Positions 7,067 through 45,956 of a DNA stretch of 64,000 bases are shown here, piece by piece (the first letter of the stretch is position 1; each line of letters opens with the position of its first letter). The position numbers were made by a program, and so were the translations under genes. The stretch lies in sequence record KC801932; one strand, given 5' to 3'. The notes beneath the pieces were generated by a model. The model did no database searches, was not told the origin of the DNA, and was given only the letters and a program-made list of their open reading frames with translations. Source of the DNA: Escherichia phage Lw1.

Positions 7067-7344
7067 TTATTCAGGTATCCGTACAGGGTAATACTCTGAC
7101 CGTAACCTATTCAATTATGACCGCTATGGCTGCATGTCGTGATCATGTGTTGACAAAGCCGCCTGTGACTGAAATTCTGGAAATTGATATATGGAACGGT
7201 GGTGTAATTTGTGGATCTTATGGATTTACACCACTGGAAGAAAATTTAAACACAATGGAAGAATGGTTATATGGGAAATTGTACACCAATGAAACTACCA
7301 AAGCATACGACGCTGTTAACTCGCGAAAAACTACATTCTGTTGA
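7063..7344 (+). CDS. Hypothetical protein (93 aa)
   Basis: ATGA-coupled ORF upstream of frd. Confidence 0.3.
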   Translation: MIIQVSVQGNTLTVTYSIMTAMAACRDHVLTKPPVTEILEIDIWNGGVICGSYGFTPLEENLNTMEEWLYGKLYTNETTKAYDAVNSRKTTFC

Positions 7345-7546
7345 ATGGAGTCCGTTAGACGTGATGATCTTTGATATCGAATCACGGATCATTAATGCTC
7401 GTATGAACGGATTAGGAATCTTTTCTGTTGAATTCGAAAAGATTCGCGGTTATAATGCTGACTGTAAAAACAAGTTGCGCGTCATGGTGGAAGCAATGGG
7501 CTACATCGTGGATATTGAAGACAATAAAATGTGGATCGGATTATGA
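7271..7546 (+). CDS. Hypothetical protein, start uncertain
   Basis: ORF overlapping previous one in another frame; ends with ATGA overlap into frd. Confidence 0.25.
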   Translation: MGNCTPMKLPKHTTLLTREKLHSVEWSPLDVMIFDIESRIINARMNGLGIFSVEFEKIRGYNADCKNKLRVMVEAMGYIVDIEDNKMWIGL

Positions 7547-8124
7547 GCAAAGTAAAAGCAGTTTTCGCAGTCGGTAATGACGCATACGAAGAAGATTTTG
7601 CGTTTGGCTACCAGCAGGGTTTACCGTGGGGGCATTGCAAAGAAGATTTGCAGAAATTCAAAGCAGAAACTGCAAATAGCGTCCTGATCATGGGTGCGAA
7701 CACTTTTACTTCTCTGCCTGGTAAATTGTCAGGGCGAGTACATTGCGTTATGTCTGCATCCGGTCAACGTCTGGTAACGAAGAACGGAAATACCGCTGAT
7801 TACATCATCCACTGTGGCGGGTTGTCTGCTGCAATCGACGTGATGAAAGCAACGCATCCAGATAGTGATGTGTGTATCATTGGTGGTAAGGGGTTGCTTC
7901 TGGAAGCAATCAATAATACACTGGTTGATGAATTAGTCATAACTCACGTTTATGGACATCGTGTGTATAATGCACCAGCGTTTAAACGTGATGTCTCGTT
8001 TAGCGTCAAAGAATTCTATGATGCAGTCTTGAAGTATGGATATTGTGATTTTGAAACTATCCATATTCACGACAACGAACGCGTTGCAAAACTTGTGATC
8101 GACCGACATACGAAAAAGGCATGA
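7543..8124 (+). CDS. frd: Dihydrofolate reductase
   Basis: 193 aa; DHFR-like motifs (VFAVG, LPW, IMGANTF, IIGG); gene order frd-td as in T4. Confidence 0.88.
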   Translation: MSKVKAVFAVGNDAYEEDFAFGYQQGLPWGHCKEDLQKFKAETANSVLIMGANTFTSLPGKLSGRVHCVMSASGQRLVTKNGNTADYIIHCGGLSAAIDVMKATHPDSDVCIIGGKGLLLEAINNTLVDELVITHVYGHRVYNAPAFKRDVSFSVKEFYDAVLKYGYCDFETIHIHDNERVAKLVIDRHTKKA

Positions 8125-12777: not shown

Positions 12778-13175
12778 TGGACGATGTAACGTTTGGTGTA
12801 ATATTTCCTTTGCGTCTGGGTTCAGACAAAAGGATAGATCGGAGTTTTGTTAAATGTGGTGAATTCCGGCATTGTGTATATTTTATTGAAATCGACGGTC
12901 GGATAGTGTATGTTGGCAAGTGTCGTGATTTGTGGAAGCGGTTAGACACATACCGCAATTCGAAATACTGGCGGGAAGCAAACCCCAGTAACATTTTGAA
13001 AACCGCACGTCTGGAAATGGCAATCAAAAAAGGTAAACGTGTAAATCTTATCGTGACAACACACGACGAAAGCACGTATCACGATTTTGAAATCAACATG
13101 ATCCGAAAAATTAATCCTGAATGGAACAAACAGCACTATGACAAATCTAACCAAAAATCAGAAAACCCTCTTTGA
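12777..13175 (+). CDS. denA: GIY-YIG-like endonuclease II (DenA-like)
   Basis: 132 aa; VYFIEIDGRIVYVGK ... NPEWN resembles T4 DenA layout; position nrdB-denA-rnlA as in T4. Confidence 0.5.
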   Translation: MDDVTFGVIFPLRLGSDKRIDRSFVKCGEFRHCVYFIEIDGRIVYVGKCRDLWKRLDTYRNSKYWREANPSNILKTARLEMAIKKGKRVNLIVTTHDESTYHDFEINMIRKINPEWNKQHYDKSNQKSENPL

Positions 13176-14295
13176 CCAGTTGATGAAACTGTGTAACGAA
13201 AGCGAATGCTTCTATTTCATTGATCAAAAAACCGTGATGCAAACCCATGTTCGCATCTTTAACTATCGCATGGCGAGCTATTCCGACTGGTTAAAACCTG
13301 GTGCGCTGGAATGTCGCGGTATCATGTTTGTGATGGATGGGGATACCCCCGTAAAACTCGTCAGTCGCCCGATGGAGAAGTTTTTCAACTATGCCGAAGT
13401 AAAGGCATGGGAAGCACTTAAAGCCGCTCCTGTAACGATTGGTGAAACCGTAGTTGATGTGATGATTAAGGAAGATGGTTCCCTTATTTCCACCTTCTGT
13501 GATTCCGGCTATCTGGGCGTTAAGTCTAAAGCATCAGTTCAATCTGAACAGGCTATGGACGCTATGAGCGTGATTCAGAGAAACCGCGCACTGTTCGATC
13601 GTCTGACCGAACTGGTTAATGATGGTTTCACAGTCAATATGGAATACGTCGCACCAACAAACCGTATCGTAATTGGTTATCAGGAACCAGCAGTGGTGAT
13701 CCTGAACATCCGTAATAACGACACGGGCGAATACGTCGATTATCAGGACATCTTCGCAGATAGTGTATTACGTCCGTTCCTGGTTGAGCGTGAGAAAATC
13801 GAAGTCACCGATCTGGATGCATTCATTACCGAAGCCTACACGAAAGAAGGTTTTGAGGGTTACGTAATCAAAACTGATAAAGGGTTCGTGAAAGCGAAAA
13901 CTAACTGGTACGTAAACCTACACCGCACGAAAGATAGCATCAACAATAATAAGGATCTGTTCTTAAATATTGTTGAAAATACCGTAGATGACCTGAAACA
14001 AATGTTCCTCGATGATATGTACGCACTCAAGAAAATTGACGCATTCGAAACGTTATTCCTTGATAGTCTGAATCGTCTGACTGCAAAAGCATTCCAGGCA
14101 ATCGAAGACACGAAAGGCAAATCACACAAAGATTACGCGATCGCCCTGAGTTCTGACTTAACCCCTGACGGTCGTATCATCTTCGGGCCTATGATGCGTT
14201 ATTTTGATGATACCGATAAGCAAAAGCTGGTCGATAACATCGTTGCATTAATGGCGAAGAACTACGAACAGTTTATACCGGAAGAATATAAATGA
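13138..14295 (+). CDS. rnlA: RNA ligase 1
   Basis: 385 aa; N-terminus matches remembered T4 Rnl1 (IFNYRMASYSDWL, ALECRGIMF, SRPMEKFFN); KEDGSL nucleotidyl-transfer motif. Confidence 0.85.
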   Translation: MTNLTKNQKTLFDQLMKLCNESECFYFIDQKTVMQTHVRIFNYRMASYSDWLKPGALECRGIMFVMDGDTPVKLVSRPMEKFFNYAEVKAWEALKAAPVTIGETVVDVMIKEDGSLISTFCDSGYLGVKSKASVQSEQAMDAMSVIQRNRALFDRLTELVNDGFTVNMEYVAPTNRIVIGYQEPAVVILNIRNNDTGEYVDYQDIFADSVLRPFLVEREKIEVTDLDAFITEAYTKEGFEGYVIKTDKGFVKAKTNWYVNLHRTKDSINNNKDLFLNIVENTVDDLKQMFLDDMYALKKIDAFETLFLDSLNRLTAKAFQAIEDTKGKSHKDYAIALSSDLTPDGRIIFGPMMRYFDDTDKQKLVDNIVALMAKNYEQFIPEEYK

Positions 14296-14618: not shown

Positions 14619-14941
14619 AAATAACGACATTAGCCCTTGTTCTGGGCGTTCTGTTGGTCGGGTGTGCTGAGAAGCCCCCTGAAAAGATTTTGCCGACTTT
14701 ACCCGCTAAGGTAAACCCTGTTGATGTGAAATGGAAAGTAATGGCGGAAGTAAGGGAAATCGACGGGAAGAAATATCTCGTTATGCCGTTTGACGGCAAC
14801 CCATACGTTGCGCTATCATATCCAGACTCATTGATTTTTCGTAGCTGGATGAATGACGTTAAGCGACAGAAAGATCAAACCGATAATATCCTATGTACCG
14901 TGGGATATTCCGAAAAATGCAAATTGAGAGATTCTAAATGA
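14615..14941 (+). CDS. Putative o-spanin lipoprotein (pseT.2-like)
   Basis: Signal peptide with lipobox LLVGC; ATGA-coupled to neighbours. Confidence 0.6.
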   Translation: MKITTLALVLGVLLVGCAEKPPEKILPTLPAKVNPVDVKWKVMAEVREIDGKKYLVMPFDGNPYVALSYPDSLIFRSWMNDVKRQKDQTDNILCTVGYSEKCKLRDSK

Positions 14942-15825
14942 ACCTGTTTATTACTGTAGGCGTACCAGGTAGCGGGAAAACTACATGGGCGAAAGAAAAA
15001 GCGCGTCAACTGGGGAACACTCTGACTGTTTCCCGTGACGATATCCGTCGAACCCTTTATTGTGCTGGCGGTGATCTAACTGGCTACCGCTTCACCGAAG
15101 AGAAAGAAAAACTGGTAACTCAGATGCAAACCAATATTGTTCTTAGTGCTCTGGGGCATGGAAAGAACGTTATTGTACACAATACGCATCTTAAACCAGG
15201 CGACCATATCTTCTGGAAAGAACTCGCGAAAGGAACAGGCGCGGAGTTGCATTTCGAATACTTTGATGTTGATATCGTCGAACTGCTGAAGCGCAACCAT
15301 AAACGCGGTGTAAATGCTTTGCCTGTCTCCCGTGTATGGGAAATGTTTACACAGTATCGTAAATTGCGTGGTTGGGTTCCGGCTATGCAGTACGCAGATC
15401 CAAACAAACCAAAATGCGTTATCTTCGACGTTGACGGAACGTTAACCAAAGTTGGACAGCGTAGCCCGTATGACTTTACGAAGGTAATCAACGATCCGGC
15501 TAACCCTCCGGTTCAGGAACTGTTCAGAATGTATAAAGCCTCTGGCTATGCCTGTGTTGTTGTATCGGGGCGTGAGGGTACTGTACAGTGCGCACATGAT
15601 ACCGCTGCAAGCCTGATCGGGTATGGTGTTGACCTGAGCGATGGTATTTTCATGCGCGAAGAAGGGGATCATCGTCACGATTTTCACGTAAAAGAGCAAA
15701 TACTTGTTGAAAAGATTCTCGATAAGTATTATCCTGTTCTTGCAGTGGACGACCGAGATACCCCTACCGGAATGTGGCGAATGAACGGTATCCCATGTTT
15801 CCAGGTTGATTACGGCGACTTCTAA
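14938..15825 (+). CDS. pseT: Polynucleotide 5'-kinase/3'-phosphatase
   Basis: P-loop GVPGSGKTT at N-terminus; HAD phosphatase motif VIFDVDGTLT in C-terminal half. Confidence 0.88.
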   Translation: MNLFITVGVPGSGKTTWAKEKARQLGNTLTVSRDDIRRTLYCAGGDLTGYRFTEEKEKLVTQMQTNIVLSALGHGKNVIVHNTHLKPGDHIFWKELAKGTGAELHFEYFDVDIVELLKRNHKRGVNALPVSRVWEMFTQYRKLRGWVPAMQYADPNKPKCVIFDVDGTLTKVGQRSPYDFTKVINDPANPPVQELFRMYKASGYACVVVSGREGTVQCAHDTAASLIGYGVDLSDGIFMREEGDHRHDFHVKEQILVEKILDKYYPVLAVDDRDTPTGMWRMNGIPCFQVDYGDF

Positions 15826-15831
15826 AAACAG

Positions 15832-15866
15832 TTGACAGTGATTGCGGGTATGATAAGATACCCGCA
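15832..15866 (+). promoter_or_regulatory. Sigma70-like promoter TTGACA-16-TAAGAT with hairpin in spacer
   Basis: -35 at 15832-15837, -10 at 15854-15859; inverted repeat gcgggtat/atacccgc spans spacer and -10; followed by AGGAG RBS and ATG 15885. Confidence 0.4.
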
Positions 15867-15884
15867 CACAAAAGGAGATATATT

Positions 15885-16151
15885 ATGATCGAACGTGAAA
15901 ATGTAAATGTAATAGTTGAACTGGGTGATCGTGTTAATGTTGATAATCCGGTTGATTTACAACTGAAACTGAACCAGTTAGGCCAGCGTCTTGTTGATCG
16001 GCTTCCTGCTGGTTACAACGTGAAACTTGTCCGTGACGGTCAGTTCTCCTTCCTGCTGGGGATTATTAGTCAACGTGGTATCGTTGAACAACAGTTCGGA
16101 ATCCAATGGAATCCGGTTTCTAAATTCGTAACGTGGGCTGGTGTATTATGA
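15885..16151 (+). CDS. Hypothetical protein (88 aa)
   Basis: ORF with strong RBS downstream of promoter. Confidence 0.4.
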   Translation: MIERENVNVIVELGDRVNVDNPVDLQLKLNQLGQRLVDRLPAGYNVKLVRDGQFSFLLGIISQRGIVEQQFGIQWNPVSKFVTWAGVL

Positions 16152-39981: not shown

Positions 39982-40236
39982 TTAAAAAAGATGCGTTAAA
40001 TGTCCTGCATTGCTGGGGTATTCGACGTAATCACCACGGAAGATGTTCAAATCTTTATCAAATTTAAACCCATGTCCTTGAACATCTTCATGACGAGATA
40101 CATAAGATACTCCATACTTTTCAAGGTCTTCCATATACATTTCGGTGATTCTCTTCGCTTTATCCAATCCGCGTCCCTCAAATCGAGAACGTCGATAATT
40201 CGCAAGAAGAAACGCATATAATTCTTCGTATGTCAT
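39982..40236 (-). CDS. Hypothetical protein (84 aa)
   Basis: ORF ATGA-coupled into methyltransferase gene. Confidence 0.4.
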   Translation of the reverse strand: MTYEELYAFLLANYRRSRFEGRGLDKAKRITEMYMEDLEKYGVSYVSRHEDVQGHGFKFDKDLNIFRGDYVEYPSNAGHLTHLF

Positions 40237-41144
40237 TTCAATACCTTTCTGATTTGTTTCGCTATGGCTTCGATCACGGGTATTGAAACTGAATTTCCCG
40301 CTTGACGATATGCCTGTTTTTTACTATCCGGTATGATAAATGAATCAGGGAATCCCTGCAAACGAAAACACTCACGGGGAGTAAGTCTTCTGGGGTTCTT
40401 TCCTTCCTGCAACACCAGACATTGAACGCCGTCCTTGTAATACTGCTGGGTTATCGTCCCAGTGTGCGTAGAATCGCTTGTGACGGCCTGATAACCAAAC
40501 CCCTTACCATTCGCCTTGTTTCGTTCCTTACGCTCTCTAAAGCCTTTCCACGCGTTATCTGATAGGGTGTATGAATCATCAGCATCTTCGAGGATATCGC
40601 CCACTCTCGTAGGGGTACGCGGAGGAACAGGAAACGAAAAGAATACATCATCCAGGAAGCAAACAATAAACACACGTTCACGTCTTTGTGGTAGTCCGAA
40701 ATCTTTTGTATTCAGTCGTTGATAGAATACGTTATATCCTTCGGCCTCCAGAAGCCCGTAAATCGTTTTAAACGTCTTCCCCTTGTCATGGGTTAGTAGT
40801 TCAGGCACGTTCTCAAAGAACAGCACACGGGGCTTTTTAGCGCGTATGATGCGGAGTATTTCAAAGAACACAGTACCGCGAACATCATCGAACCCCAGTT
40901 TTAATCCTGCTTTACTGAATGCCTGACACGGGAACCCAGCCAACAGGATATCGTGATCAGGTACTTCGGTTTCTTTTATCTGGAACAGATCTCCCTGTAG
41001 GTTATCATTGCCCCAGTTTTCGATATATGTTTGCTGTGCGAACTTGTCGATTTCAGACGTTAAAAGGCATTCGACACCGCCGAACGCCTTATCAAATCCT
41101 AATCGAACCCCGCCCACACCAGCACAGAGGTCAATTATTTTCAT
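40233..41144 (-). CDS. DNA (cytosine-5)-methyltransferase
   Basis: Canonical C5-MTase motifs: I DLCAGVGG, IV GFPCQAFS, VI ENV, VIII QRRERVF, C-terminal X. Confidence 0.85.
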   Translation of the reverse strand: MKIIDLCAGVGGVRLGFDKAFGGVECLLTSEIDKFAQQTYIENWGNDNLQGDLFQIKETEVPDHDILLAGFPCQAFSKAGLKLGFDDVRGTVFFEILRIIRAKKPRVLFFENVPELLTHDKGKTFKTIYGLLEAEGYNVFYQRLNTKDFGLPQRRERVFIVCFLDDVFFSFPVPPRTPTRVGDILEDADDSYTLSDNAWKGFRERKERNKANGKGFGYQAVTSDSTHTGTITQQYYKDGVQCLVLQEGKNPRRLTPRECFRLQGFPDSFIIPDSKKQAYRQAGNSVSIPVIEAIAKQIRKVLK

Positions 41145-41401
41145 ACGTCAAAATCAATCTCGTCAATTTTGTATGAGTTTTCGTCAATGTCCGCCCATAG
41201 GGTTACATTGACGTGTTTACTATCTTCGTACAGATTACGCCCGTTCATCCCGCCCGTGTAATTGCTTTCGGTACGTTCAGTAACTTCCAGTCGGAGGCTA
41301 TCGCGCATGATCTGAACAACAGCCTGTTCCAGCGTAACCGCGTCTGGGTTTTTGGTATCGCCCAGTACAACGTCTTTAACGTTCAAAATAACATCAGTCA
41401 T
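41141..41401 (-). CDS. Hypothetical protein (86 aa)
   Basis: ATGA-coupled ORF. Confidence 0.35.
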   Translation of the reverse strand: MTDVILNVKDVVLGDTKNPDAVTLEQAVVQIMRDSLRLEVTERTESNYTGGMNGRNLYEDSKHVNVTLWADIDENSYKIDEIDFDV

Positions 41402-41685
41402 TAGTAAAATTTCCCATAGGTGTTGAAATTTACGTGCGTCGGGCTTGCTTCTTCAACACGAATTTCATAATCATAATCCTCATTTGTTACGGAACGATCA
41501 TGTTTGATGACATCAACGATATATACCCGGAAGAATGCATGATACAGCGCATCGCGGATCTTTTCAGCAAGTACCGGAGGCTCACTATACAGGTTAATCA
41601 TATCGGAAACAATATCCTCTACGCGAGGAATATCGCGTTTATCAATATAACCAGTATATAAATTTACTTCTTTCATTAATGCCAC
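41401..41685 (-). CDS. Hypothetical protein (94 aa)
   Basis: Coupled ORF. Confidence 0.35.
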   Translation of the reverse strand: MALMKEVNLYTGYIDKRDIPRVEDIVSDMINLYSEPPVLAEKIRDALYHAFFRVYIVDVIKHDRSVTNEDYDYEIRVEEASPTHVNFNTYGKFY

Positions 41686-41921
41686 TCCGTTTCGATACCG
41701 TATTTGTATGCGTCAATCCCCAGAGGGGTGATCAACAGACACATATCAGTATTTTCGTTTGGCGACTTAAACGCCGCAGTTGCGTAACCTTTTTCAATCA
41801 GGGCATTACGCCCTGATTTACTGGGTACGTCATCGAAATCCAATGTTAACACCTGTGATGCATATCTGTAAAGTTTATACAGCACGTCAATTTCAGCACC
41901 GGATAATTTCGGGAATGTCAT
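41676..41921 (-). CDS. Hypothetical protein (81 aa)
   Basis: Coupled ORF. Confidence 0.35.
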   Translation of the reverse strand: MTFPKLSGAEIDVLYKLYRYASQVLTLDFDDVPSKSGRNALIEKGYATAAFKSPNENTDMCLLITPLGIDAYKYGIETEWH

Positions 41922-42916
41922 TTGTAGTACCCCACAACGTGATCGCGATAAACGCGTTCGATAAAGTCGTTCCAGAACTCGCGATCAACCTCTTTCGGAT
42001 AATTAGAGACTGCTGCAAGGCGTTCGACTTCACCCATGATTTCTTCCAGCTTTTCCTGGACAAAAGTGAAAGGTTTCGTTCCGGCTTTAACTTCTTTTAA
42101 AAGCTGGCTCTCTTCCAGAGGATATACGATATCACCATGTTTGTAAATGCTGATAAGCTGTAAGCCTCCGCGCAATGCGTGAGAAAGTGCTTTCCAGTCG
42201 ATCCCGTTGTTGGCTTCTGCCTGTCTTGCTCGTTCACCATATTCGTCCCAGAGTTTATACACTGACTTTTTCATTTCAGCTACGGTGATCGTAGACTGGA
42301 ATTTGCGCCCCAGCACTTCATAGAAGTCCTGACAACCGGATTTCAGGGTTTTGTCTGTAGTGAATCGACAGAACTCATTGGTCGGGAATGTGTGAGAGAC
42401 TTCACCAACTTTGATGTGATGTGTTGCGTCACCCAGATTAGACGGCATACGAACAATGCGGCTATTTGGTGTATCCTGCAACACATCGTATACTTCACGC
42501 AGTGCAGCCAGGCGAGAACCTTTAACGCCATACTTCGCCGCTTGCTTACGAACATAACCAAACAGGCCAGTTAGTTCCGTAGTGTAGAAACGTGAACGGT
42601 TAGCGCGGATATACTGCCAGATTTCGGAGTTAGCGATCATCTTACTATCATCAGCATGAAGCATATCGAGCGCTACGGTATCACCATCACACGCAAGGCT
42701 AATGAACTTAGGCAGACTATACAACTGACGGTCGATGTCGTCTACGGTGTTCTTAGAGCTTTTATCGCCCGTGCTCGTGTCGATAGTCTTCGGGGCTTTA
42801 CCCAGTAAGATATCGCGTGGATGCGGGAGAAAGATCCCTTTATAATCTTTGTCGCTTGTCGGGGTGTTCAGTCCATACAGGTGAGAACCGAACACAGTTT
42901 CCATTACAATTTTCAT
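41918..42916 (-). CDS. Nucleotidyltransferase-fold protein (Pol-beta superfamily), 332 aa
   Basis: N-terminal GS...SDxD signature (FGSHLYGLNTPTSDKDYKGIF). Confidence 0.5.
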   Translation of the reverse strand: MKIVMETVFGSHLYGLNTPTSDKDYKGIFLPHPRDILLGKAPKTIDTSTGDKSSKNTVDDIDRQLYSLPKFISLACDGDTVALDMLHADDSKMIANSEIWQYIRANRSRFYTTELTGLFGYVRKQAAKYGVKGSRLAALREVYDVLQDTPNSRIVRMPSNLGDATHHIKVGEVSHTFPTNEFCRFTTDKTLKSGCQDFYEVLGRKFQSTITVAEMKKSVYKLWDEYGERARQAEANNGIDWKALSHALRGGLQLISIYKHGDIVYPLEESQLLKEVKAGTKPFTFVQEKLEEIMGEVERLAAVSNYPKEVDREFWNDFIERVYRDHVVGYYK

Positions 42917-43311
42917 AGTTCAATACCTAATGTTTTTGCGATATCTTTCAGTTGAAATGTAGCGATTTCGGGAACAACAACATAATGAGTACCGAACTCT
43001 TTTCGTATTTTTTCGCACAGTTCAGTACGATACTGAATTTCATTGTATACAGTTTCGCTGCGATACATATAAAATCCACCCCATCCACCACCAGAACCCG
43101 AAGTCAACCCGCACTTACGATCGACTTTCTCAACGTTCCAGTCTTTCGCGTCAGCATCTTTGTTGGTGGATGCGTACAAGTATTGACGAGCAACCTTGAT
43201 TACGTGAAACACGCGAGGATTTTCGACTCTGCGATTATTGTAATTTCTTGTACCCGGATCGTAAATGGTATCACCCACTTTCACATCAGTTAAATCTTTC
43301 AAATTATTCAT
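42913..43311 (-). CDS. Hypothetical protein (132 aa)
   Basis: ATGA-coupled ORF; Gly-rich loop GSGGGWGG. Confidence 0.4.
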   Translation of the reverse strand: MNNLKDLTDVKVGDTIYDPGTRNYNNRRVENPRVFHVIKVARQYLYASTNKDADAKDWNVEKVDRKCGLTSGSGGGWGGFYMYRSETVYNEIQYRTELCEKIRKEFGTHYVVVPEIATFQLKDIAKTLGIEL

Positions 43312-43559
43312 TTCATTTTCCAGCAGTTTTTCTTTTCACAGTAGAATAACGGGAGTTTAGACAGCACCGGAGTAACCACATCTTCGCCCGTTTTCGTATT
43401 ATGTGTCAGTTCAACAGTCAACGACTGACCAGAAGCAGATTTCACAATATCCAGTTCTAGGATCTCACGATTACCCTTTGTATTGATTTCCGCAACATAG
43501 TAATCATGCCCGTTGATATCGACAACATCGCCCATCAGAATGCTTCTGGTATGTTTCAT
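43308..43559 (-). CDS. Hypothetical protein (83 aa)
   Basis: ATGA-coupled ORF. Confidence 0.35.
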   Translation of the reverse strand: MKHTRSILMGDVVDINGHDYYVAEINTKGNREILELDIVKSASGQSLTVELTHNTKTGEDVVTPVLSKLPLFYCEKKNCWKMK

Positions 43560-44131
43560 TTGAATGTCACCTTCGTATACAGCGAGGACATCAAAGAACG
43601 GTCAACACCGTCAATAACAATCATACCCTGGTACGCGTCTTTGTCTTTGCGGGAGTACATACGGCACAGCAGCGAACCATCTTTTGCGATGTATTCAACC
43701 TGGTATGTGCGACGTTCTGTTTTCAGAATATCACCAATAGCAACCGGACGTTCTACCTTTTCACGAGTATTGAGCGCGAACGATAATACATTGTCACCAT
43801 CACAAACGACCGCTGTATCTTTCGCGGATACATCGCGACTGTCAATGCTATGGATGCTCACGGAATAAACACTATCGGAAATCAACATATGTGCATCACC
43901 GGAACCTACTTTAGCGATGATAGTTGATGCGGTCTTAGTACGCGTATCGGAAGCAAACACATACACAGTAATCGGTACACCACTTTGAGTGTCTTTCGCA
44001 ACAGATTGAACAGTGAACGATTCTTTTAACCCACGAGATCGTGAGTGATTGATATAAACACTATCACCAGGGATCAGAGCGCGACGGACAACTTTGGTTT
44101 CTTCGGTTTTAATAAATGCAGTTTTGTTCAT
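43556..44131 (-). CDS. Hypothetical protein (191 aa)
   Basis: ATGA-coupled ORF. Confidence 0.4.
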   Translation of the reverse strand: MNKTAFIKTEETKVVRRALIPGDSVYINHSRSRGLKESFTVQSVAKDTQSGVPITVYVFASDTRTKTASTIIAKVGSGDAHMLISDSVYSVSIHSIDSRDVSAKDTAVVCDGDNVLSFALNTREKVERPVAIGDILKTERRTYQVEYIAKDGSLLCRMYSRKDKDAYQGMIVIDGVDRSLMSSLYTKVTFK

Positions 44132-44397
44132 AATGATTTCCTCTCAAATTCTTCATCAGATTTCCAGTACACGTTAAAGTTACGGCAATCATGATCAGAA
44201 GTCAACGTATATTTTTCACTTGTTTTTTCATCGGTGATAACCATCGTTTCATTTTCGATAGAGTCAACACCATACACAAACACTTTATCACCGCGCGTAT
44301 TCAGGAACGCGTCACCTTCTTCAATCAACTGCCAACAGTTCACTGGTAAACCGCCCGTGCTTATCGGACGGCTAACAAGACAGTAAGGACGTTTCAT
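44128..44397 (-). CDS. Hypothetical protein (89 aa)
   Basis: ATGA-coupled ORF. Confidence 0.35.
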   Translation of the reverse strand: MKRPYCLVSRPISTGGLPVNCWQLIEEGDAFLNTRGDKVFVYGVDSIENETMVITDEKTSEKYTLTSDHDCRNFNVYWKSDEEFERKSL

Positions 44398-44582
44398 TAA
44401 TCAGCAAGCCTTATGTTATTTGGATCTGGAACGAAAGTATCTTTCTGGGTAATCATGAACACCAGGAAAGCGGCGATTTCAGGATCATCAATAACGTTGA
44501 ACTTGCGTTTGCCTTTCCAGCGTACCGCGATTTTACCATCATCGAGTTTTCTGATTGCTGCAACTTCTGCTTTCTGAGTCAT
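44397..44582 (-). CDS. Hypothetical protein (61 aa)
   Basis: First ATG (44582) after PeSL cassette, AGGAGG RBS. Confidence 0.4.
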   Translation of the reverse strand: MTQKAEVAAIRKLDDGKIAVRWKGKRKFNVIDDPEIAAFLVFMITQKDTFVPDPNNIRLAD

Positions 44583-44648: not shown

Positions 44649-44750
44649 TAATCTTTTTATCGACAGAAAGGACAACTAAACTTATCGCCGCTTCCACCAT
44701 GACGAGGACAGCAAATTTTTTCGATTGGTGTCATTGTTAAAATTTTCATT

Positions 44751-45809
44751 TTAAAGTCCAGTAAACGCAACGATAATCTGATAGTGGTCATCGAAGAACT
44801 CACCACGTTTCTGTTTGACTTCGTGCATAGGCATCCAGAACGCCTCTGCTGCATCGTCAGCGCCTCCCATAATACGGGGCAGACTTCCATCATTGTTAGG
44901 CTCTAACTTGATGTATTGCGCTACAGTCGGTTTTGAGAAGTGTACGGAACGCTTCGGATGGTCGAACAGCATAGAATTGCGGATTGAACCACGGATAACC
45001 TTTTCAGGAACCTTGATCCGAACTTCTTCGAGCAATTCGCGGATCGCACAATCCAGGAACGTTTCATTCGCGTTTTTGTGTCCACCTGGCAGGGCTAATG
45101 CGCCTTTACCTGGTGCAAACTTACGACGAATCACTAACACATGGTTATTACAAACAACCACGCTATCACCAGTACAACAGTTTAACGCGTCGGGGTATGG
45201 GTACGCTTTGAACTTCTCCAGTTCATCTTCCCATTTCTCGAACTCGTAGTACAAGCGCCAGAACGTATCGGTCATCATCCATCCGTTAAGAGAACCCACG
45301 ACAGCAGCAGGAACATAACGGGCGATCTTCTCGTCCCATCCATTTTTATGTAAAAAGATGGTTGGACGCAGGTCGGTAGCAGATAAATCTTTGCCGTCAA
45401 CCTTAACCGGATCAACCGGAACATGAGTCCATCCGAACGCTTTAAGCCAGTACGAATCAGCATCTTTTTCGTAACCGTAGATCGCGATGTTATCGCCTTT
45501 GGTTTCGTCGATTGCTGTACGAACAGAGGTTTTCCATTTTTCTTCATTGTAAAGGTAATCTGGAATCGGCTTGAATTGCACACGGGCTACATCTTCGTAT
45601 TTGAACTCAGACAGTAACCAGCTTGTAATCATACGTTCCCGTTCGGTTGCCGTCAGCGGGTTTAAAACGTTAGGGTAAGCATAAGCTGAACCCAGGAGGA
45701 TATAAACGGTCTTCGACTCTTCCAGTGCTTTACGCACCATTGCCGCGTGACCATTATGGAAGGGTTGGAATCTGCCAATTACGACAGCTTTATCAAATTT
45801 GTATTTCAT
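44751..45809 (-). CDS. natV: Bifunctional NMN adenylyltransferase / Nudix hydrolase (NadM-Nudix, NatV-like)
   Basis: N-terminal GRFQPFHNGH nucleotidyltransferase motif; C-terminal Nudix box GGHKNANETFLDCAIRELLEEV; start at ATG 45809 with GGAG RBS. Confidence 0.8.
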   Translation of the reverse strand: MKYKFDKAVVIGRFQPFHNGHAAMVRKALEESKTVYILLGSAYAYPNVLNPLTATERERMITSWLLSEFKYEDVARVQFKPIPDYLYNEEKWKTSVRTAIDETKGDNIAIYGYEKDADSYWLKAFGWTHVPVDPVKVDGKDLSATDLRPTIFLHKNGWDEKIARYVPAAVVGSLNGWMMTDTFWRLYYEFEKWEDELEKFKAYPYPDALNCCTGDSVVVCNNHVLVIRRKFAPGKGALALPGGHKNANETFLDCAIRELLEEVRIKVPEKVIRGSIRNSMLFDHPKRSVHFSKPTVAQYIKLEPNNDGSLPRIMGGADDAAEAFWMPMHEVKQKRGEFFDDHYQIIVAFTGL

Positions 45810-45956
45810 AACGTGCTCCACGTTTAAAGGGTAATCATAAAACAGACGCAATAATCAATACACCAAGCAAACCGCCAATAAAGCCGAAGAATAGCGAAAT
45901 GAAGATAGATAAGATGATCTGTTTTATGTTCATTATAGTATTCTCGTTCTAAGAAT

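Follow-up and report, generated by a model that had tools for sequence, protein, structure and literature searches.

Positions 40233-43311 of a 64,000-nucleotide stretch of DNA from Escherichia phage Lw1 (sequence record KC801932), hereafter the window, encode on the minus strand a C5 DNA cytosine methyltransferase and a nucleotidyltransferase of the Pol-beta fold, which an earlier note on this DNA had brought together in a single coupled operon. They are probably two independent accessory genes, an anti-restriction methylase and a predicted RNA-repair nucleotidyltransferase, that share a T4-style run of overlapping early-type genes. Its sequence identifies the source of the window as an RB43-type (Pseudotevenvirus-like) relative of T4. 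The DNA of the region is 84-88% identical to that of the Citrobacter phages IME-CF2, CfP1 and Miller (~87% for these three) and of many Enterobacter, Klebsiella and Cronobacter phages of the RB43/KP15 type.

A nucleotidyltransferase orthologous to T4 NrdC.11

The nucleotidyltransferase (332 residues; 41918-42916, minus strand) is, by alignment, a full-length ortholog of T4 NrdC.11, to which it is 51% identical over 332 of 336 residues. The nucleotidyltransferase motif initially recognized from the sequence alone was upheld by profile searches, in which the protein matched the RlaP family (PF10127) with 52.8 bits, well above the cut-off of 23 (E-value 6e-14), and phrog_388, annotated 'nucleotidyltransferase' (E-value 2e-117). 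Across 26 diverse homologs, there is no variation in the residues of the catalytic signature GS-x10-DxD and its extension (G10, S11, D22, D24, D60 and D62) and almost none at D84, and a second set of invariant residues (G227, R229, D240, K242, H246 and R249) lies towards the C-terminus. An AlphaFold2 model (predicted local distance difference test score 86) predicts a Pol-beta core, a β-rich insert that spans residues ~150-210 and, at the C-terminus, a helical domain. The protein resembles T4 NrdC.11 and the RlaP family (PF10127, COG3541) in the invariant GS...DxD and in its tk-rI-...-nrdC.11 neighbourhood, a T4-type gene order common to this region. However, NrdC.11-type proteins differ from canonical RlaP by the β-rich insert and by a different helical C-terminal domain, and constitute a distinct RlaP subfamily, often paired with canonical RlaP in bacteria. 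No relative of the nucleotidyltransferase emerged from PDB sequence searches, whether the query was its own sequence, a profile of 23 sequences or a profile of 26 diverse ones, and a canonical bacterial RlaP queried against the PDB retrieved nothing, hence there is no RlaP structure to compare.

Proteins of this type are widely distributed. The nucleotidyltransferase was detected by tblastn in 1,691 phage records, which include T4-like phages of Escherichia, Klebsiella, Aeromonas, Acinetobacter and Vibrio, and 824 families were retrieved with an E-value of 1e-30 or better among 1.84 billion cluster representatives. A protein 82% identical to that of the window is encoded by a 178,077-bp contig (NZ_JBHSCL010000010.1) in an assembly labelled 'Flagellimonas marina'. 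Flagellimonas is a marine genus; the contig matches a complete Pseudotevenvirus genome in length and probably represents contamination by an enterobacterial phage.

A predicted role in RNA repair

T4 NrdC.11 was placed in the RlaP family in a preprint from 2025, in which bacterial RlaP was found to add one or two nucleoside monophosphates to the 3'-OH ends of RNA, but not of DNA, and to label RNA rather than E. coli proteins (PMC12776372). The enzyme prefers mimics of cleaved tRNA and can rescue the aminoacylation of over-damaged tRNA (PMC12776372). Comparative genomics, in turn, predicts that phage RlaPs restore nucleotides before ligation, alongside RNA ligases (PMC7824862). Of the functions that had been envisaged for the phage enzyme at the outset, modification of RNA ends is thus the one that these studies and the family assignment favour, while relatives of the cGAS/DncV, CCA-adding and MNT types found no support in profile searches. 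For class II CCA-adding enzymes and poly(A) polymerases, there was no Pfam match to the PolyA_pol head domain at E-values up to 0.01, and Foldseek returned only low-probability eukaryotic poly(A) polymerases and terminal uridylyltransferases.

The genomic context of the family was surveyed in 80 bacterial, archaeal or metagenome-assembled loci with full-length NrdC.11-type genes (L018-L097). A canonical full-length RlaP gene lies immediately downstream of the NrdC.11-type gene in 25 of these 80 loci (e.g. L027 4001-5699 and L064 3797-5811), and other loci of the set have RtcB (six loci), RtcA (two), an HD phosphohydrolase (four), Pnk (three) or a ligase in the vicinity. This suggests that in bacteria the NrdC.11-type and canonical RlaP proteins form a two-paralog module. 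The phages carry the NrdC.11-type gene only, and neither the window nor the complete genome of EcL22g, a phage of the same clade, contains a canonical RlaP. The presumed RNA-repair partners of the nucleotidyltransferase are an RNA ligase 1 (T4 RnlA-like; 13138-14292, plus strand), which is 92% identical to Miller RnlA by tblastn, and a polynucleotide kinase/phosphatase (T4 PseT-like; 14938-15822, plus strand), which is 88% identical to Miller PseT. In the proposed mechanism, the NrdC.11 ortholog would extend cleaved RNA, for example tRNA, at its 3'-OH by one or two nucleotides in a template-independent manner, and the phage Pnk and RNA ligase 1 would then reseal RNAs that had lost a nucleotide to a host ribotoxin. 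Such an RNA-repair activity is a well-motivated prediction. Laboratory T4 tolerates a deletion of nrdC.11-mobD.3 (PMC9825161), as would be expected for a conditional counter-defence gene.

Nevertheless, several points weigh against a role in RNA repair. The match to RlaP is limited to residues 2-133 (positions 19-143 of the 249 of the model), and the C-terminal two-thirds differ from those of canonical RlaP. Template-independent addition of one or two nucleotides to RNA has been demonstrated only for Pseudomonas RlaP (PMC12776372). The nucleotidyltransferase gene lies ~27 kb from rnlA and pseT rather than next to them. Finally, the best structural neighbour is HalB (PDB 9dbh), a DNA-oligomer synthase and not an RNA repair enzyme.

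A rival reading is a signalling or anti-defence function, either as a cGAS/DncV-type cyclase or as a HalB-like maker of short oligonucleotides directed against host defence. HalB is itself a component of host defence that synthesises oligo-dA. However, HalB and the phage protein are only 13% identical and have no relationship at the sequence level, where the family is RlaP. Hailong pairs HalB with the channel HalA, whereas no HalA-like partner is found beside the phage gene. Profiles for CD-NTases (cGAS/DncV) and models of other defence systems gave no match in Pfam or PADLOC, the PADLOC models also being negative for the small ORFs (open reading frames) next to the nucleotidyltransferase, and the bacterial homologs accompany RtcB, RtcA, Pnk and canonical RlaP rather than defence effectors. 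A signalling or anti-defence function is therefore very unlikely. The more specific idea that the NrdC.11-type enzyme, instead of simply repairing RNA ends, makes short oligonucleotides that hold off Hailong-type or similar decoy-sensing defence is a long shot, although, if true, it would turn NrdC.11 into a widespread anti-defence gene of T4-like phages. Equally hard to sustain is a transfer of nucleotides to proteins or small molecules, as catalysed by MNT antitoxins and aminoglycoside nucleotidyltransferases. The resemblance to MNT and antibiotic nucleotidyltransferases is that of a generic Pol-beta fold, with 7-13% identity; the protein lacks the hallmarks of an antitoxin of HEPN/MNT pairs, which are a small MNT domain and a HEPN partner next to it, with no match to MNT profiles in Pfam or PADLOC; Pfam gave no match to protein- or small-molecule-modifying families; and the target labelled by bacterial RlaP was RNA, as opposed to E. 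coli proteins or DNA (PMC12776372). An RNA-repair enzyme of the RlaP family thus remains the preferred reading of the nucleotidyltransferase.

Functional independence of the two enzymes

The methylase, the three small ORFs that follow the nucleotidyltransferase and the nucleotidyltransferase itself could in principle be a single module for DNA modification or anti-defence, in which the nucleotidyltransferase would act on, or together with, methylated DNA. It is true that the genes share a strand, that their stop and start codons overlap and that many Enterobacter, Klebsiella and Cronobacter phages of the clade retain the arrangement. However, all 11 genes of the run overlap in this way, as genes in T4-type early regions generally do, and so common a property does not point to a shared pathway. 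Some 1,500 records have the nucleotidyltransferase but not the methylase, among them that of T4, which has no C5 methylase and in which the neighbours of NrdC.11 are mobD and nrdC.10; the nucleotidyltransferase is also present in phages that contain hydroxymethylcytosine and no methylase. The methylase, at an identity of at least 60%, is confined to ~173 records from a single clade, and the next-best match among phages has an identity of 41%. Even within the clade the pair may be separated, since in Miller, CfP1 and IME-CF2 the methylase is separated from the small ORFs by a gene on the opposite strand together with a bidirectional terminator. In Miller, this inserted gene (7272-7973 of locus L001, plus strand) encodes a protein of 233 residues annotated 'tail needle knob'; the window is without the insertion. 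Canonical RlaP, moreover, is inactive on DNA (PMC12776372). A common module is extremely unlikely, the idea of an operon that links the two enzymes in a functional sense finds no support, and the methylase and the nucleotidyltransferase are functionally independent.

An orphan methylase of the SsoII/Ecl18kI/Dcm lineage

The methylase (303 residues; 40233-41144, minus strand) was recognized from the outset as a Dcm-type C5 enzyme with all core motifs, and closer analysis agrees. Residues 1-299 align with PF00145 (E-value 8.9e-93), the match to TIGR00675 has an E-value of 1.7e-95, and alignment with M.HhaI together with inspection of the sequence identified motifs I (DLCAGVGG), IV (GFPCQAFS), VI (ENV), VIII (QRRERVF), IX (RRLTPRECFRLQGFP) and X (GNSVSIPV), all of them intact, as in a C5 DNA cytosine methyltransferase.

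By its recognition domain, the enzyme belongs to the SsoII/Ecl18kI/Kpn2kI-Dcm lineage and appears to descend from the methylases of restriction-modification systems. When this domain alone (residues 162-251) was searched against the PDB, the sole match was Dcm (E-value 4e-5). The closest plasmid matches (54% identity) are on small plasmids of the SsoII/Kpn2kI/Ecl18kI type; the methylase of pKPN2 is 55% identical overall and 52% identical in the recognition domain, where the alignment has no gaps, and the restriction enzyme next to it is R.Ecl18kI (E-value 4e-203). Bacterial homologs with 57-61% identity likewise adjoin Ecl18kI-like restriction enzymes, in settings that include a Morganella P2-like prophage and a classic operon of C-protein, restriction enzyme and methylase. 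The phage enzyme has the same recognition-domain length and gap pattern as M.Ecl18kI, M.Kpn2kI, M.SsoII and M.NlaX. It differs from the plasmid enzymes by the lack of a regulatory N-terminal extension of ~75 residues (303 residues versus 379) and from the M.Ecl18kI/SsoII group by its orphan status, by clade-specific substitutions in the recognition domain and by a genome that retains CCWGG and purges CCSGG. No cognate restriction gene lies beside it, the neighbouring ORFs having no EcoRII-C or other nuclease domain, and the methylase is for this reason considered an orphan rather than part of a Type II restriction-modification system. With E. coli Dcm and M.EcoRII it shares a recognition domain of the same type, and the sparing of CCWGG and the EcoRII resistance of phages KP15 and KP27 fit this likeness. 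Dcm, however, is only 44% identical overall and 29% identical in the recognition domain, and contains additional insertions, as well as an N-terminal extension of considerable length, that are missing from the phage methylase, which scores 197 against the Dcm subfamily model NF007772 (cut-off 710).

That the enzyme might be of the M.HhaI type and modify GCGC can hardly be credited, although M.HhaI is its top whole-protein match in the PDB (E-value 1e-63, because the catalytic core drives the match), a homolog is named 'hhaIM' in one GenBank record and GCGC is not avoided in the window (observed/expected ratio, O/E, 0.96-1.1): the similarity to HhaI is confined to the catalytic core, a recognition-domain query that retrieves Dcm does not retrieve HhaI at E-values up to 10, the positions opposite Gln237 and Arg240 of HhaI, residues with known roles in that enzyme, are not conserved in the alignment, the pKPN2 methylase is closer overall and gap-free in the recognition domain, and both GGCGCC and GCGCGC are missing from the window, where 5.5 and 9.3 are expected. 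An HhaI-like annotation would therefore be wrong for this methylase, whose recognition domain is of the SsoII/Ecl18kI/Dcm type.

By comparison across the clade, the methylase is far better conserved than its neighbours. The protein is 96-99% identical to those of Enterobacter and Klebsiella phages, whereas the nucleotidyltransferase is only 82% identical in the same phage (EcL22g), which could reflect either stronger purifying selection on the methylase or its recent exchange.

Ordinary cytosine and the avoidance of restriction sites

The suggestion that this phage does not fully replace cytosine with hydroxymethylcytosine has gained weight on several counts. Gene 55 (1-423) is followed in the window by gene 47 (1014-2030), which leaves no room for a-gt. 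Neither the window nor the complete EcL22g genome yielded a match to T4 a-gt or b-gt, and a search of both with T4 gp42 retrieved only thymidylate synthase, at 22-24% identity.

The distribution of restriction sites tells the same story. Of 49 testable 6-bp palindromes, the window lacks as many as 17, compared with 11 out of 3,553 non-palindromic hexamers; the corresponding figures for palindromes are 22 of 59 in EcL22g, whose complete genome repeats the avoidance pattern, and 0 of 33 in a 39-kb sample of T4. The missing sites include those of BspEI, BamHI, HindIII, PstI, SacII, BsiWI, PvuII, AgeI, NcoI, KpnI, ScaI, SalI and SphI, for which between 6.7 and 28 occurrences are expected. Such avoidance of palindromes implies that the DNA is exposed to type II restriction, i.e. 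that it contains ordinary cytosine, and the absence of hydroxymethylcytosine replacement is thereby supported at the level of sequence. The literature agrees on non-replaced cytosine in these phages (PMC2993671, PMC3620542, PMC8056088), and RB43-type phages without hydroxymethylcytosine genes and with a C5 methylase have already been described (PMC2993671, PMC8056088, PMC5219037).

Not all sites are avoided. Of 32 five-base quasi-palindromes, the one in greatest excess is CCWGG (O/E 2.0), and the strongest depletion affects CCSGG (0.11) and GGWCC (0.10); GATC shows no depletion in the window. The complete EcL22g genome has the same bias, of which the T4 sample shows nothing. CCWGG and GATC thus behave as protected motifs, which fits a Dcm-type methylase and the Dam-type methylases of relatives, as well as the EcoRII resistance and DpnI sensitivity published for KP15 DNA (PMC3620542).

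A homolog of T4 denA (endonuclease II) is kept in the window (12795-13193, plus strand), and relatives also keep a homolog of the gene 56 dCTPase (15400-15933 in Miller). In T4, endonuclease II and the dCTPase serve to degrade and exclude cytosine-containing DNA. How a clade with ordinary cytosine and denA spares its own DNA is a puzzle that has also been raised elsewhere (PMC8056088).

Predicted target and role of the methylase

The recognition sequence is CCNGG for Ecl18kI, SsoII and Kpn2kI and CCWGG for EcoRII and Dcm, and in each case the inner C is methylated. Because of these known specificities of the family, the predicted product is C(5mC)NGG or C(5mC)WGG, where 5mC is 5-methylcytosine, and the inner C of CCNGG or CCWGG is the most likely target of the phage enzyme. 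The DNA of KP15 and KP27 is resistant to EcoRII, and that of KP15 is sensitive to DpnI (PMC3620542); the methylases of these two phages are 84% identical to that of the window. In the proposed scenario, the solitary methylase would modify the inner C of CCNGG/CCWGG on replicating, ordinary-cytosine phage DNA, and this methylation would shield the DNA from enzymes of the EcoRII and Ecl18kI types, which are common in Klebsiella, Enterobacter, Citrobacter and Escherichia, while the answer to the remaining restriction sites would be their elimination from the genome.

Three points sit uneasily with this scenario. Firstly, CCSGG is purged ten-fold although the closest characterised relatives recognise CCNGG, which would be needless if CCNGG were fully protected. 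Secondly, the recognition domain of the phage clade carries TQQYYKDG in place of SARYYKDG, at positions that are conserved in CCNGG and CCWGG enzymes alike. Thirdly, host Dcm alone could explain both the tolerance of CCWGG and the resistance to EcoRII. A literature search for published 5mC motif data from Slopekvirus or Pseudotevenvirus found none. Protection against restriction at CCNGG or CCWGG is nonetheless the role predicted for the methylase.

Layout of the gene run

The two genes are part of a run of 11 successive minus-strand genes (39982-44582), each joined to the next by an ATGA or TAATG overlap of stop and start codons; six of these genes fall within 40233-43311. The original description of an ATGA-coupled chain thus stands as regards overlap, which is found at every junction, but two of the junctions are TAATG instead, and the run extends beyond both ends of the chain as it was first delimited. 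Between the two enzymes lie three small ORFs with no assigned function, of 81 (41676-41921; phrog_4365), 91 (41401-41676; phrog_13206) and 86 residues (41141-41401; phrog_7342), all on the minus strand. ATGA overlaps join the stop codon of the nucleotidyltransferase to the start of the 81-residue ORF, and its start codon to the 132-residue protein encoded upstream. The TAATG junctions are those between the 91- and 86-residue ORFs (1-nt overlap) and, if ATG 41676 is the start, between the 81- and 91-residue ORFs. This ATG is likely to be the start of the 91-residue ORF, rather than a GTG at 41685 that would give 94 residues, because the PHROG alignment begins at residue 4 of the GTG form and the Miller homolog has 90 residues.

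The upstream neighbour of the nucleotidyltransferase (132 residues; 42913-43311, minus strand) contains a domain similar to a phage ProQ C-terminal domain (PF24203, E-value 3.6e-18). It occurs in 160 phage records, exclusively in the RB43/KP15-type clade and always immediately upstream of the nucleotidyltransferase, and may be an RNA-binding accessory. The run opens with four small minus-strand genes with no assigned function, of 61 (44397-44582), 89 (44128-44397), 191 (43556-44131) and 83 residues (43308-43559), and ends with a gene of 84 residues (39982-40236, minus strand; phrog_11469). Its upstream edge is marked by a strong intrinsic terminator on the minus strand (44647-44618), a 13-bp stem followed by a T run just above the start of the run, and a terminator is annotated at the same position in Miller. 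Just ahead of this terminator, a 29-residue ORF (MKILTMTPIEKICCPRHGGSGDKFSCPFCR; 44659-44748, minus strand) has cysteine pairs that resemble a zinc ribbon, and it directly follows a gene for a bifunctional NMN (nicotinamide mononucleotide)-adenylyltransferase/Nudix protein (44751-45851, minus strand).

Plus-strand ORFs of the region had no PHROG matches, an Rfam search of the region gave no match, and NCBIfam returned nothing for the nucleotidyltransferase and the small ORFs. A candidate MotA-box middle promoter downstream of 39982, read from TGCTTGCA...TATAAT, was rejected, as it misfits the consensus and the pattern is not enriched in the window (five occurrences versus 3.3 expected).

Concluding remarks

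Both genes were already known and have been widely sequenced and annotated, and their analysis in the window changes little for the field: a methylase gene and a lack of hydroxymethylcytosine are documented for phages of the RB43 and KP15 types, and the nucleotidyltransferase belongs to the known T4 NrdC.11/RlaP family. What the landscape of site avoidance offers is a clear read-out, from the genome sequence itself, of ordinary cytosines and of CCWGG and GATC as the protected motifs. As for the nucleotidyltransferase, the NrdC.11-type subfamily is represented in phage T4 itself, where NrdC.11 may be a third enzyme of tRNA repair that counters nucleotide-excising anticodon nucleases such as RloC.

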